From the sequence record PP197160.1: DNA of 43,930 nucleotides. One strand, 5' to 3'. Under the pieces are notes generated by a model. It had not been told where the DNA came from. It was given only the letters and a program-made list of their open reading frames with translations, and searched no databases. Shown one piece after another: positions 193 to 7,123 of the stretch. Source of the stretch: Escherichia phage phiHAO78-1. Both the position numbers and the translations under genes were made by a program. Each line of letters starts with the position of its first letter. Positions within the stretch are counted from its first letter, which is position 1.

Positions 193-2127
193 TTATATTA
201 AACCATACACTGCATTGTGTATTGTTAAACTGCCAATCGAGGTCCCAACATTAAAGTTCACCTCAGCCTTGTATGCTCCTTGAGGGACTGAATCCACTAA
301 AGCATAAAAATTGAATGTGTCTCCTACTGGGATGTTATACCCTATGGAATCTGCGACAGCATTCCCAGCCTGATCAAGGAATCTAATGGACGCTTGGGCG
401 GTTGTTGAATTTTTAGCCCAAAAACCAAACTGGAAATATCTACCAGGCTCACAATCAATAACCGATTGGGTGAAGTTAGCTGAAGCATCAGAGGATGGGA
501 CATCAATAACTATTGATGTTGAGAACATAAGGTCGTTAGGTACATCATTGTTATATGATGCCGTAACAACACCTGCTCCAGTTTGAGCTAATGACCAGTT
601 AGATATAGACAAAAACTGACCTGAGCCGTTGCTTAAACTATTTATAAACGGACTAACTATTGCACCTAAATCCCAGTTAGTTGTTATAAACCCTGCTCGA
701 GGGAAGCAACCTCTGGATATAACTTTGCGGCTAGAGCCTCCAATTAACTGTCTAGTAGGGAATCCAGTGGCAATAGTAGCGTTCCCGTACAAAGGCAGGG
801 AGCAATTACTAAGAATAACTACACCATCACCATTACTTACCACAGGAACAGAACTAAATCCGTCAGGCAGGAGTACTGTTGAGTCTTTGATGCTTAATCT
901 TGAACTCCCTGCAACGGTAAAACCAACAAAACTCTGGCCAGGCTGATATTCTATATTTCCGTTGGAAAAAACAACCGTAGCATTATCAGATAGTGCTATA
1001 GTAGGGTCAAAATAACCTGCTTTCTTACCAGCAGGAAGTGAGCAAGATTCAAAAATAAATTGTCCATTCTTGAATGTAAACGGGCCTCCATTATCTACGC
1101 ACCAGCAATGGTTGAATTTTATAACTTCGCCAGAGTTAGCTGGTGAATTGAAAATAACAGAATCTGTAAAACTTCTTGACAACGTACATTTATCAAAAAG
1201 GATACGATATGCATTATCAAGAAACTCAATTCCGGCAGTTGAGATAAACCCACTATTAGAGATTCTTAACTCTGATACTTCACCACTAGTAGAACCACCG
1301 ATAGCCAATTTCCTGGAACCTTTTCCGACGAATGACACGCCACTCATCAAAGCAGTTGCGTTAACTGCATCTCTGTTAGTGTAATCCGCGCCTGTATTAA
1401 TAATGGTTAGGTAGTAGTCACCGGTTACGGAAGCAGATTCTGTTAAAGTACATTTATTTTTTCCAATAAGCGCGCCTTTTGCTACGTCTAAAACAATAGG
1501 TGTTGTTATCTCACCAGAAACAGGGACTACACAGTCAAATCCGGCAGAGTTTATTTTGTTGATGAATACCGCCAAATCTTCGGTTCCAGTATAGCCAGCA
1601 TCATACACATCCACGGTGCCGTTGAAGAATTTTCTTTTCCATACCACCCCACTTCCTGAGAAGGTAACAATATTGTCTATAGTGGTATCCTCGCTAACAG
1701 CTACCATAATACCACCACCAAGATTAAACCCGCTCACATATGAATCAAGAATTATGGAATCGCCGATTGATCCTGATATTGATGATAACTCAGAAACTGA
1801 TGATGCAGTCCCTATATAAGATAAGCCATTTGGTTTATTTAAATCACTCCTCAGAGTAGCATCACCAACACTAACCCACGTACTAGGGCCAATACCACCG
1901 GTTGATGTAGGGGTTGAGTCAGCGGGAACAGCTTTAGGGAAAGCTCCATCCCATGTATAGCACTGGCCACCTGCAATATACCAAACAGCATCAGTATTAT
2001 TATTTAATGTAGCACCCTCCTCAAAGCTACCATCAACAAGTGTTAAACCTGCCTCTGCAAGACTACGACGCCACTGTTCACGGTCATTACCTTTACTTGT
2101 ATTATAAATTAAACCTGTAAGTGCCAT
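193..2127 (-). CDS. Tailspike / receptor-binding protein, beta-helix-like, possible polysaccharide depolymerase; no T7 gp17-type N-terminal anchor
   Basis: 644-aa ORF at the extreme end of the genome after the lysis genes; Gly/Ser/Thr/Asn-rich composition with recurring short beta-strand-like segments typical of parallel beta-helix tailspikes; start codon at 2125..2127. Confidence 0.7.
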   Translation of the reverse strand: MALTGLIYNTSKGNDREQWRRSLAEAGLTLVDGSFEEGATLNNNTDAVWYIAGGQCYTWDGAFPKAVPADSTPTSTGGIGPSTWVSVGDATLRSDLNKPNGLSYIGTASSVSELSSISGSIGDSIILDSYVSGFNLGGGIMVAVSEDTTIDNIVTFSGSGVVWKRKFFNGTVDVYDAGYTGTEDLAVFINKINSAGFDCVVPVSGEITTPIVLDVAKGALIGKNKCTLTESASVTGDYYLTIINTGADYTNRDAVNATALMSGVSFVGKGSRKLAIGGSTSGEVSELRISNSGFISTAGIEFLDNAYRILFDKCTLSRSFTDSVIFNSPANSGEVIKFNHCWCVDNGGPFTFKNGQFIFESCSLPAGKKAGYFDPTIALSDNATVVFSNGNIEYQPGQSFVGFTVAGSSRLSIKDSTVLLPDGFSSVPVVSNGDGVVILSNCSLPLYGNATIATGFPTRQLIGGSSRKVISRGCFPRAGFITTNWDLGAIVSPFINSLSNGSGQFLSISNWSLAQTGAGVVTASYNNDVPNDLMFSTSIVIDVPSSDASANFTQSVIDCEPGRYFQFGFWAKNSTTAQASIRFLDQAGNAVADSIGYNIPVGDTFNFYALVDSVPQGAYKAEVNFNVGTSIGSLTIHNAVYGLI

Positions 2128-2135
2128 TATATCTC

Positions 2136-2738
2136 CTACCCTTTCATGAGTGCATTAACAGCAGACTCAACAGAGTCATACCGATTACCAATGGCCTTTG
2201 CTTGCCACTGCCTACGTTCCCACAGACCCCAGCACACTTTATTGCGCTGCCCATTAATATACTGAGAGCAGTCAAAGGTCCAGCGGTTACCTCCCTTGTA
2301 CACCCAACCAGTGCCAGGGGACTTCTGTTGATATTTACTAATGTAACGCCAGTTCAGCACAGCCTTTCCGGCCGCAGTATAATCTAGGTGCTTGAGATGC
2401 CGCTTCACGGCACTACCATCGAAGCCAGCTACACCTACATTATAAATAAAGTCTACAGACCCTATCAGAGCCACATCAGAGAGCTGCATAGGAAGCCCGT
2501 CAAGAGCCTTAGCATGTTCCCCTGCTGATTCTATCAGTTGCTTCTGACAGTCGCTCAGAGTGGCTCTCTGGCCCATTTTGACGCCCTTTGTCTCCCCATA
2601 GCAGATTGTAGGGACGCCGGCACTATCCTTGTAGGCAGTAAGGCTTAAGCCTTCATTGTGTTGGATTACTTCAGTGATAGCCCCACCGAGCATAGTGACC
2701 CCGGCGAGGGCTGCCACAACCTTAGTCCTTAAACTCAT
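2136..2738 (-). CDS. SAR endolysin (T4-lysozyme-like, GH24 muramidase)
   Basis: N-terminal Gly/Ala-rich weakly hydrophobic segment (KVVAALAGVTMLGGAITEV) typical of a signal-anchor-release domain, followed by the lysozyme catalytic motif EGLSLTAYKDSAGVPTICYGET (Glu-Asp-Thr triad). Confidence 0.8.
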   Translation of the reverse strand: MSLRTKVVAALAGVTMLGGAITEVIQHNEGLSLTAYKDSAGVPTICYGETKGVKMGQRATLSDCQKQLIESAGEHAKALDGLPMQLSDVALIGSVDFIYNVGVAGFDGSAVKRHLKHLDYTAAGKAVLNWRYISKYQQKSPGTGWVYKGGNRWTFDCSQYINGQRNKVCWGLWERRQWQAKAIGNRYDSVESAVNALMKG

Positions 2739-2973
2739 ATTTAATAGCCCCCTTACGTGCGTGCTCTTCTAGGAGCTTGTACGTGCGCCGTTTGTAGTAC
2801 GCATTCCACGCCAGGGTTAGCACTGCACATACCGTTGCAGTGATGAAGCTGATAACACTCCAGTCCCAACTCATTAGCTCTGCCAACCAGCCTCCTGAGA
2901 CTGTAGCGCCAGTAACTGCTGCACCTGCCCGGGTAGCGAGATCTGCCCCAACTACGTCTCCTACTTTAATCAT
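2722..2973 (-). CDS. Holin, pinholin-like
   Basis: 83 aa with two hydrophobic segments (first weakly hydrophobic, second WSVISFITATVCAVLTLAW) and a charged C-terminus; lies immediately upstream of the SAR endolysin and overlaps its start. Confidence 0.6.
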   Translation of the reverse strand: MIKVGDVVGADLATRAGAAVTGATVSGGWLAELMSWDWSVISFITATVCAVLTLAWNAYYKRRTYKLLEEHARKGAIKYEFKD

Positions 2974-5798: not shown

Positions 5799-6100
5799 TA
5801 GACAATTCCTTCTAGTAAGTCCTCGGAGTCTGAACCATTAATCTTGTTTAAAATCTCTTGCTTACGCGCCTCTCTGCGCGCCGCTAGTTCGTCATCGAAT
5901 TCATCTCGTAGGTCCTGCATCTCCTCGGAATCTGCATCCGCGGTGATATCATTATCCTTCAAGAACTTGGCAATGACTGACTTATCTGCGGCCGGGAGCG
6001 GCACTTCATCTTCTTTAGACTGTTTGATCTCTTCAATCAAAGCCTCTGTGAACATGCGGTGCAGCTCCGAGAGACGACTGCGTTTAGCCGCCCCTGCCAT
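5798..6100 (-). CDS. Terminase small subunit (DNA maturase A)
   Basis: 100-aa highly charged protein immediately upstream of, and overlapping, the large terminase gene. Confidence 0.6.
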   Translation of the reverse strand: MAGAAKRSRLSELHRMFTEALIEEIKQSKEDEVPLPAADKSVIAKFLKDNDITADADSEEMQDLRDEFDDELAARREARKQEILNKINGSDSEDLLEGIV

Positions 6101-6112
6101 ATGATCCTCCTG

Positions 6113-7123
6113 TTAGGATGTTATTACCCCGCTGGCACGTAGTGCTGCTAGTAAGGCATTTAGTTGATCCACCACGTCCGCAGCACCGGTTGCATCCTCC
6201 ACAGCCTCCGCTTTGCCTGAATACGCTAAAGCCCCTAATGAGTTGGCTAAGTGGTCTACAGATGCTTGTGTAGCGAAACCGTCCCCTGCAGTTACATCAG
6301 CACCTAATCGAGCAGCTACGATCGTCCCTGCAGGTAGAGTCTCGGCAAACATTATAGTATTATCTACAATCTCGAAACTGTAGCCACGAATCTGCCCAAC
6401 ACCATTAAGTTCTACTATAGCCTTAGTAAACTTTAGCCCTGGAGTTACCTCGTCTGTATCCTCTGTAAGCACCGTGCTCCACGGGTAGCTTACTGTTTCT
6501 ACACCACTTATAAAGGTGTTTTCCAGAGCAGAGGTACGCATACTCAAGGCATCGTCCGCAGCTTTCCTAGCGGCGCGTTCTGTGTCGATGCGGGTGTCTA
6601 GCCTGGCGTCCTCAGAAACAACGTAGGCCTTTATGGTGGCATCAGCAGATTGCCGGGCAGCCGCCTCTGCATCAATACGGGCGTCTAGCCTAGCATCCCC
6701 GACGTCTACATAGTGCTTGGTAGCAGCATCTTGTAGGTCCACCGGGTCTGCTACATTCGTGATGCGATACCCGTTCATGCTTATATCCCCGTAGAATCCG
6801 GGGATGGCCCTACCCTCCACCAGCTCTTGACTTAAGTGTAAGAACTGTGTGTTTTGAGAGTCTACGTTCACCTCGATGAATGGGGAACCACTAGCAAACT
6901 CAATGTACAGATACTCGCGCTCAGTCTTGCGAATGAGCAGTACCGTCGTATCCGCTGTCAAGGCTGTGTTCAGCCTAATATTTGTAGAGCTGGTCCAGGT
7001 GTACTCAGTGGTTTCAACGCCGTCGAGATATACATGAATATAGGACTTGTCCAAATACTCAATATCACACTGGATATCCTGGGTACCAGCTGGCTTGATT
7101 TGCTCTTGCCAGCTGTATGCCAT
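6113..7123 (-). CDS. Tail fiber / adaptor protein with T7 gp17-like N-terminal domain
   Basis: N-terminal region resembles the T7 tail-fiber tail-attachment domain, followed by a repeated ARLDxRIDxE(R)AAR coiled-coil-like segment. Likely start is the ATG at 7121..7123, with GGAG 10 nt upstream; the ORF track extends to 7168 and overlaps gp16. Confidence 0.7.
   Translation of the reverse strand: MAYSWQEQIKPAGTQDIQCDIEYLDKSYIHVYLDGVETTEYTWTSSTNIRLNTALTADTTVLLIRKTEREYLYIEFASGSPFIEVNVDSQNTQFLHLSQELVEGRAIPGFYGDISMNGYRITNVADPVDLQDAATKHYVDVGDARLDARIDAEAAARQSADATIKAYVVSEDARLDTRIDTERAARKAADDALSMRTSALENTFISGVETVSYPWSTVLTEDTDEVTPGLKFTKAIVELNGVGQIRGYSFEIVDNTIMFAETLPAGTIVAARLGADVTAGDGFATQASVDHLANSLGALAYSGKAEAVEDATGAADVVDQLNALLAALRASGVITS

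Follow-up and report, generated by a model that had tools for sequence, protein, structure and literature searches.

The 43,930-nucleotide sequence of Escherichia phage phiHAO78-1 (PP197160.1), analyzed at its full length and referred to below as the window, very likely encodes a two-part receptor-binding system, in which an anchored first receptor-binding protein (RBP1; 6113..7123, minus strand) carries a docked second one of the O78 type (RBP2; 193..2127, minus strand) whose body was acquired by recombination. The finding rests on the domain content of the two proteins, the absence of an anchor from RBP2, homology, the mosaic structure of the RBP2 gene and the gene order, all of which were observed directly. 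Both the KP34-type split mechanism and architecture and the TSP4/O78 body subtype are known; what is new is their combination.

RBP2 is a protein of 644 amino acids whose gene, the final one of the genome, starts with an ATG that has a Shine-Dalgarno sequence (AGGAG) ahead of it. The Pfam scan matched residues 32-89 to PF18668 (Tail_spike_N; tailspike TSP1/Gp66 N-terminal domain) and nothing else in the protein; in particular, the T7-type tail anchor PF03906 (Phage_T7_tail) gave no match at E<=0.01. The protein was assigned to phrog_4217, 'tail protein', with an E-value of 1.9e-260. In a phmmer search, residues 30-644 aligned colinearly with 85-697 of the 5W6H chain (1084 bits, one 2-residue gap). 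5W6H is the enzymatically active part of TSP4 (orf213), a tailspike of the Kuttervirus myophage CBA120, and its chain begins at TSP4 residue 340. Homology in RBP2 begins at TSP4 residue 424, after the D1 domain (340-421), and RBP2 therefore lacks the TSP4 anchor, the XD1-3 domains and D1; only 29 residues lie ahead of the TSP4-homologous part. By tblastn, the RBP2 body (residues ~30-644) was 77% identical to TSP4, and chance similarity is ruled out because the E-values of the homology were 0. The structure of RBP2 was modeled with AlphaFold2 (AF2; pLDDT 79.9, pTM 0.69), and the model gave 5w6h_A as its top Foldseek match (E=2.3e-75, TMq 0.69), followed by Klebsiella K2 depolymerases, other CBA120 tailspikes and Acinetobacter tailspikes, all of them beta-helix tailspike depolymerases. 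Taken together, the colinear alignment, the AF2 model and the Foldseek matches predict for RBP2 the D2-neck-D3'-D3 beta-helix-D4 architecture of the TSP4 body.

In the AF2 model, a disordered stretch (residues 1-14) is followed by a helix (15-25), a small beta head, a neck helix, D3', a run of short strands and a C-terminal beta-sandwich. Residues 1-13 (MALTGLIYNTSKG; 2089..2127, minus strand, as are all segments of the gene) form a Drulisvirus-specific candidate docking peptide with the motif MALxxL[VI], which had a pLDDT of 33 in the monomer model. The linker helix comes next (residues 14-30, NDREQWRRSLAEAGLTL; 2038..2088) and is common to the myophage PD06 and to the Shigella phage SFN6B. 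Residues 31-89 (1861..2037) correspond by Pfam and by the 5w6h alignment to the tailspike head D2 (PF18668), with D1 absent, and form a recombination zone. The neck (residues 90-110; 1798..1860), with an AF2 helix at 90-96, holds the boundary motif W(V)SVGDA(S/T)LR, and the D3' insertion domain (111-165; 1633..1797), one short helix plus four strands in the model, equals TSP4 503-557 by alignment; D3' and D4 were defined for TSP4 elsewhere (PMC7506556). The predicted catalytic and receptor-binding body is the D3 right-handed parallel beta-helix (residues ~166-480; 688..1632), for which 5w6h identity, the AF2 model and Foldseek agree, short regular strands with pLDDT 84-96 running across residues 120-350. 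The protein ends in D4 (residues ~481-644; 196..687), a C-terminal beta-sandwich of carbohydrate-binding-like fold according to the 5w6h alignment and AF2 strands at 511-637. In an alignment, the conserved carboxylates D151, D184, E334 and D345 were singled out as candidates for the active site.

RBP2 is not a full-length orthologue of TSP4. In TSP4 (1036 aa), the hub of a four-tailspike complex, the shared part is preceded by a baseplate anchor at the N-terminus, by three XD domains of gp10-like type and by the D1 head. In RBP2, just the candidate docking peptide of 13 residues and the linker helix stand in their place, and the protein would be a docked partner rather than a hub. The part shared by the two (D2, neck, D3', D3 and D4) has the same fold by Foldseek. 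A related observation is the homology between RBP2 residues 12-117 and positions 186-291 of 8x8m_A, a chain of 1037 aa named 'Probable tail spike protein'; this match would fit the view that the anchorless spike is equivalent to an anchored one in which a short peptide stands in for the N-terminal region.

CBA120 TSP4 cuts the O-antigen of E. coli O78 (PMC8825819, PMC10408124). Subtypes of receptor-binding proteins with at least 75% identity keep O78 specificity, and probably so do those well below this value (PMC10408124); the O78 subtype is delimited at >=75% identity, or down to 30% with conserved structure. Phage homologues of RBP2, compared by tblastn, included the tailspike of the siphophage vB_EcoS_ASO78B (ASO78B; 92% identity, host E. 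coli O78), PD06 and PD114 (88%), AVIO78A (85.5%, host O78), PJ16 (81%), Kuttervirus TSP4 orthologues (77-78%), PhAPEC5 and PhAPEC7 (77%), phiWAO78-1 (69%, host O78), EC1-UPM (69%, host O78:K80), XT32 (68%, host O78) and ECOO78 (61%, host O78), the tailspikes of phages from O78 hosts being 61-92% identical to RBP2. Because of the identity to TSP4, these O78-phage homologues and the literature on subtype specificity, the substrate of RBP2 is most likely the O78 O-antigen of E. coli lipopolysaccharide, not a Klebsiella capsule, and the host is most likely E. coli O78. By the same comparison, RBP2 is probably an O78 O-antigen endoglycosidase that probably shares its substrate with TSP4, cleavage of O78 being transferred to RBP2 from the literature on close homologues.

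The window is a complete podophage genome of the genus Drulisvirus (KP34-like; Autographiviridae, Slopekvirinae) of ~43.8 kb with terminal overlap, to which it belongs by nucleotide similarity and synteny. In a nucleotide search, Escherichia phage AV102 matched a 24.8-kb stretch of the window with 96% identity across 90% of its length, and the Escherichia phages Minorna, EC22.5-2 and ZH5, Klebsiella phage KPV811 and Shigella phage SFN6B were 92-95% identical to the same stretch; its coverage was 85-92% for AV102, Minorna, KPV811, ZH5 and SFN6B (92-96% identity). All backbone relatives for which the taxonomy was retrieved were Drulisvirus. Positions 2200-7200 were 85-91% identical to many Drulisvirus records, and in that search no record matched the DNA of the tailspike gene past its first ~200 nucleotides.

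For a KP34-like phage, the default reading of a terminal tailspike would be a capsule depolymerase acting on an encapsulated Klebsiella host; most Drulisvirus records are indeed Klebsiella phages with capsule depolymerases in terminal position, and Klebsiella K2 depolymerases take ranks 2-14 among the Foldseek matches of RBP2, with identities of 13-18%. Against this stand the 77% identity of RBP2 to an enzyme shown to cut O78 O-antigen, the 40 records covering at least 80% of RBP2, all of them from Escherichia or Salmonella phages (several from O78 hosts) and none from Klebsiella phages, and the nearest backbones (AV102, Minorna, EC22.5-2 and SFN6B), which come from E. coli and Shigella phages and not from Klebsiella phages. 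The capsule-depolymerase reading was rejected on this homology evidence and is most improbable. The preliminary description of the locus had taken the 644-residue protein for a beta-helix protein, a likely host-range determinant and a candidate polysaccharide depolymerase. The fold was borne out by the identity to 5W6H and by the best structural match of the model, and the reading as a host-range determinant and polysaccharide depolymerase is supported, the polysaccharide being most likely the O78 O-antigen and not a capsule.

The RBP2 gene is a compositionally foreign mosaic. Its GC content is 41% and its GC content at third codon positions (GC3) 24-31%; the genome has a GC content of 51% and terL a GC3 of 58%. 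Codons 1-13 (2127-2090) had no counterpart outside Drulisvirus in nucleotide comparisons, and residues 1-13 are the sole segment that is not common to non-Drulisvirus tailspike genes. From 2089 to ~1870, the gene is 87-100% identical, in 30-nucleotide windows, to the gene for a tail protein in PD06, a Justusliebigvirus myophage, and 63-97% identical to SFN6B; within this part, the linker-helix DNA reaches 93-97% identity to both. Near 1870-1960, identity switches from SFN6B/PD06-like to ASO78B-like, and a horizontally acquired block (84..1954, minus strand; GC 40.5%, GC3 31%) was 92.7% identical by blastn to the ASO78B tail-fibre gene and its downstream region, approaching 100% in windows 1870-1630. 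The ASO78B homology runs 109 nucleotides beyond the RBP2 stop codon, to position 84. A terminator scan detected a terminator-like hairpin at 174..188 (minus strand; 174-191 when taken as bidirectional), directly after the stop codon, and annotated terminators lie at the corresponding place in ASO78B. The homology passes through this hairpin, and the transferred unit therefore consists of gene plus terminator. A sigma-70 promoter scan of positions 1-2400 gave no excess over the shuffled control. As a separate observation, RBP2 codons 1-86 (1870-2127), which are common to many Drulisvirus-type spikes, have a GC3 of 24% against ~50-58% in the backbone; the whole gene family may circulate from lower-GC phages without adaptation to the chassis.

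The head/neck region has already been regarded as a recombination hotspot (PMC10408124). Among the 120 best database homologues of RBP2, 44 clusters, SFN6B being one of them, have a common N-terminal cassette, MALTGLIYNTSK.NDREQWRRSLAEAGLTLVDGSFEEGAT, that reaches as far as W(V)SVGDA(S/T)LR in the neck, and beyond this motif their bodies are unrelated (SGNH, peptidase S74 and other domains). The SFN6B tailspike (AVD99004) and ~44 uncultured clusters share with the window the Drulisvirus context, an RBP1 that is ~95% identical, and RBP2 from residue 1 to ~95 at >=69% identity (MALTxLIYNxSKxNDREQWRRSLAEAGLTLVDGSFEEGAT...). In SFN6B itself, similarity amounts to 69% over residues 1-105, ends near residue 95 and gives way, after the neck boundary, to a different body of the pectate-lyase superfamily.

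No O78 body was present in the 44 cassette-sharing clusters or in 51 IMG/VR loci, and none of the collections searched contained a Drulisvirus chassis equipped with such a body; likewise, the exact 644-residue protein was absent from the assembly collection searched. One candidate for a second Drulisvirus with an O78 body, the 71%-identical P0015 on ~42-kb contigs, was rejected as a siphophage with a nearby tape-measure gene. Another database protein, the 766-residue P0005 from a contig of 39.7 kb, carries an O78 body that is 82% identical overall and nearly identical in its C-terminal half, and ~128 residues of PF03906 anchor are fused straight onto it. This is the classical one-protein solution of T7 and K1F, as opposed to the split into adaptor and spike in the window.

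RBP1 comprises 336 amino acids. The mechanical list of open reading frames (ORFs) extends its frame to a TTG at 7168, and the ATG at 7123, with the Shine-Dalgarno sequence GGAG ahead of it, was taken as the start because all homologues begin with MAYSWQEQ. PF03906 was found at residues 13-141 (E=3.8e-18), and the Pfam scan revealed no other domain above threshold and no enzymatic domain. RBP1 is 95% identical to the fibres of SFN6B and ZH5 and 86% identical to KP34 gp49. Its phmmer matches in the PDB were 23sh_r ('tail fiber gp9', 307 aa; E=1e-166), Gp44 of the Shigella phage HRP29 (8es4_G; E=5e-76) and the PhiM1 fibre (8vbx_R), solved homologues that are located in phage tails. The AF2 monomer model, built from a 25-sequence alignment, had a mean pLDDT of 57.6 and a pTM of 0.25 and was used for local Foldseek matches only; at this low confidence it contains an N-terminal beta-domain, a helix at 130-206, a small beta-domain at ~207-275 and C-terminal helices. 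The segments of RBP1, all on the minus strand, are a T7 gp17-type tail anchor toward adaptor/nozzle (residues 1-141; 6701..7123), for which PF03906 is joined by Foldseek matches to the T7 gp17 N-terminus (7boz, 7ey9), the HRP29 tail (8es4) and the PhiM1 fibre (8vbx); a coiled-coil stalk (142-206; 6506..6700), supported by alignment and the AF2 helix; the small beta-domain, proposed as a T4 gp10/XD-like branching domain (207-275; 6299..6505); and a C-terminal helical region (276-336; 6116..6298), modeled at low confidence and conserved across the family.

The stalk holds a tandem 29-residue duplication (143-171 and 172-200), since phmmer places query residues 143-158 and 172-336 on the same 23sh_r residues (143 onward); the 307-residue KP34 gp49 differs from RBP1 in lacking this extra copy. 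Discrete lengths (296, 307, 318, 329, 336, 347, 358, 377, 406 and 446 aa) were observed among the RBP1 homologues P0121-P0240, which suggests that stalk repeat units are gained and lost. One could speculate that this variable coiled coil, in homologues of 296-446 aa, tunes the reach of the spike to a thin O-antigen or a thick capsule. In P0121 (446 aa) and P0123 (406 aa), both on ~43-kb contigs, the C-terminal beta-domain (RTSALENTFISGVETVSYPW...ARLGADV) occurs in two tandem copies, and these proteins may have two tailspike docking sites. The fibre gene is unlike that of the window in the two closest backbone relatives (95-96% identity), AV102 (6666-8218) and Minorna (5668-7220), where it encodes a 250-residue anchored protein whose beta-domain is no more than ~41% identical; both also have two further small genes named 'tail fiber' (148 and 113 aa), and their terminal spikes begin with MLNLTKV, not MALxxLV. 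Changes in the branch region of RBP1 may go together with changes at the N-terminus of RBP2.

In KP34virus group A, the first receptor-binding protein has ~300 aa, with the pfam03906 anchor and a gp10-like fragment, and the second one is enzymatic and encoded 5-8 genes downstream, the heptapeptide MALxxLV being the only conserved feature (PMC6872550). The docking motif and its role have been described (PMC6872550, PMC13352976), and Latka et al. found the anchor to be the sole link of the receptor-binding complex to the virion, using KP32 constructs with KP34 as donor (PMC13352976). RBP2 begins with MALTGLI, which fits this motif with a conservative V-to-I change, as in SFN6B. In order to survey the peptide, 63 IMG/VR loci with RBP1 relatives were collected, 51 of which had an ORF of at least 200 aa after the endolysin. 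This ORF began with MALxxL[VI] in 41 of the 51 loci and with a looser pattern in 47, and the ORFs diverged completely after position 7 to 10. Because of these shared starts and the divergence that follows, the heptapeptide appears to be the only element common to these spikes, as would be expected of a docking element. Docking of RBP2 on RBP1 through the peptide, and a trimeric stoichiometry, are proposed by analogy with close homologues in the literature.

This part of the analysis agreed with what the preliminary description had stated of the layout: the protein at 6113..7123 is short and has a T7 gp17-like N-terminal anchor, and the protein at 193..2127, the last one before the terminal repeat, follows the lysis cassette and is anchorless, a canonical gp17 anchor having been sought in it and not found. 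The likeness drawn there to the split layout of KP34/phiKMV-like Klebsiella phages also proved apt, the genome being a Drulisvirus with the KP34virus group A pattern, including a MALxxLV-type peptide.

Several observations weigh against the two-part reading or parts of it. As regards the substrate, the RBP2 body differs from TSP4 at 23% of its residues, and a shift in specificity is possible given this difference. RBP2 could then be a TSP4-family spike whose specificity has moved to another O-serogroup or taken in a further one, such as Salmonella or another enterobacterial O-antigen with a related repeat unit, and homologues do occur at 78% identity in Salmonella Kuttervirus phages and at 54-61% in Salmonella enterica prophages. 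The closest homologues (85-92%), however, are from phages isolated on E. coli O78, and serogroup specificity is kept within subtypes of receptor-binding proteins even at much lower identity (PMC10408124), which makes such a drift rather unlikely.

As regards attachment, the peptide and branch-domain deletions were made in a KP32 scaffold, not in a KP34-type phage (PMC13352976). RBP2 also has, unlike KP34 gp57, a helix and a D2 head after the peptide, and both could add to docking. The branching domain itself is uncertain. In the KP34 protein, HHpred assigns residues 186-242 to a T4gp10-like fragment (PMC6872550). In the window, hhalign of the RBP1 C-terminal profile with the N-terminal part of CBA120 TSP4 (TSP4-N) placed residues 221-270 onto TSP4 197-245 with a probability of just 2.4%, and Foldseek with the low-confidence RBP1 model gave local matches to TSP4-N (7rfv, 7rfo, 7rej) of 66-69 columns with an rmsd of 2.7-4.5 A. 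A phmmer search of the PDB with RBP1 186-336 returned no gp10/XD match, only 23sh_r, 8es4_G, 8vbx_R, 7y22_e and one chance-level unrelated match. With the low hhalign probability, the poor AF2 model and Foldseek matches that are local only, these results do not convincingly reproduce a T4gp10-like character for the beta-domain of RBP1.

RBP2 might accordingly bind the nozzle/adaptor directly or via another protein, with RBP1 as an independent fibre for a secondary receptor. The unconfirmed branching domain, the conserved C-terminal helical region of RBP1 and the different three-gene fibre module of AV102 and Minorna, by which the fibre region is seen to be remodeled independently, could all be accommodated in this way. 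Yet RBP2 has no recognizable tail-binding domain, and the P0005 fusion of a T7-type anchor with an O78 body is what would be expected if two genes split one function. Moreover, the homologous gp44/gp52 of HRP29 act as a complex: they have been treated as one tail-protein complex (PMC11654681), and gp44 is termed a tailspike adapter in the literature. An independent RBP1 fibre is therefore very unlikely. A PDB search with KP34 gp57 returned its own crystal structure only (8bke) and no virion complex.

We propose that RBP1 would form trimeric stubs, attached to the tail by the T7 gp17-type anchor and continued by the coiled coil and the small beta-domain, and would act as an enzyme-free adaptor. 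RBP2 would be a trimeric tailspike with no tail binding of its own, the extreme N-terminus of which (MALTGLI...) would dock on the beta (branching) domain of RBP1. Its body (D2, neck, D3', D3 and D4) would bind the O78 O-antigen and cleave it endoglycosidically, and this cleavage would let the short tail get to the outer membrane. The body and the terminator would have been gained from unrelated E. coli phages by recombination in the conserved head/neck, an acquisition that would have retargeted to E. coli O78 a chassis best known from Klebsiella.

The closest described system is gp49/gp57 of KP34 (PMC6872550, PMC13352976), in which the order of core protein, RBP1, terS, terL, small ORFs, lysis genes, RBP2 and genome end is the same. 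RBP1 matches gp49 in PF03906 and in the lack of an enzyme, and both second proteins combine MALxxL[V/I] with a beta-helix enzyme. The gp57 body (K63 capsule) is, however, unrelated to the O78 O-antigen tailspike family body of the window, and KP34 gp57 lacks the helix and the D2 head (PF18668) that RBP2 has between peptide and body; the likely host also differs, being E. coli for the window phage and not Klebsiella. The Slopekvirinae phage HRP29 (Buco, Shigella phage; PDB 8ES4) likewise has a 'hybrid' tail, with the short T7-type adaptor gp44 and the O-antigen-type tailspike gp52, and the gp44 match to RBP1 spans both the anchor and the beta-domain. It differs in belonging to another genus, in an adaptor of 260 aa without a long coiled coil and in another tailspike.

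All genes of the locus are on the minus strand, and the genes between the two receptor-binding proteins were assigned by Pfam and PHROGs. Upstream of RBP1 in transcription order lies the gene of an internal virion protein of 1232 aa (7125..10823). RBP1 is followed by the small terminase terS (5798..6100; PF11123), the large terminase terL (3942..5798; PF22530), two small conserved ORFs (3568..3942, phrog_7128, and 3370..3552, phrog_7375), a spanin with a lipoprotein signal (2966..3370; phrog_1804), whose Minorna homologue is annotated as 'unimolecular spanin', a holin (2722..2973; PF04971), an endolysin (2136..2738; PF00959) and RBP2. Seven genes (2136..6100) thus separate RBP1 from RBP2, and their order is identical in KP34, SFN6B, ZH5, KPV811 and Minorna. 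SFN6B has an additional HNH gene between core protein and fibre gene, which is not present in the window.

A repeat search found 76 nucleotides present with 100% identity at 19..94 and 43855..43930, the left copy adjoining RBP2. The repeat opens with a C14 homopolymer, and positions 1-18 of the window lie outside it. In KP34, gp57 is likewise directly ahead of the right direct repeat, as RBP2 is ahead of the terminal repeat here; the KP34 repeat has 216 bp, compared with 76 nucleotides in the window, and the true ends, or the direct terminal repeat, may be incompletely represented in the assembly. Elsewhere in the window, three paralogous HNH_3/His-Me homing-endonuclease ORFs of 130-155 aa (30098-30490, 34603-35040 and 36703-37170, minus strand) account for a 68-nucleotide direct-repeat family (30279, 34817 and 36938).

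Among avian-pathogenic and septicaemic E. coli, O78 is a major serogroup. A T7-like chassis that is small and strictly lytic and bears a predicted O78-specific tailspike would be a useful therapeutic or diagnostic scaffold. The locus reveals no new mechanism; it is an ordinary, cleanly resolved host-range swap. It displays natural cut-and-paste points, with the conserved head/neck as the joint and the terminator moving with the module, and it supports the modular engineering rules for receptor-binding proteins that were recently tested in Klebsiella phages. Our sequence comparisons clearly indicate that only 13 codons of the tailspike gene are specific to the chassis. More tentatively, at a little less than an even chance, we consider this a case of natural retargeting across genera and morphotypes, in which the 13-residue peptide alone would tie a foreign O-antigen tailspike, the DNA of which is 92-100% identical to myophage and siphophage genes, to a Drulisvirus chassis best known from capsule-specific Klebsiella phages, and the helix, the D2 head and the neck would serve as a universal recombination joint. 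If this is true, nature and not engineering would have set the minimal natural 'plug' with which Drulisvirus can be loaded with foreign tailspikes.

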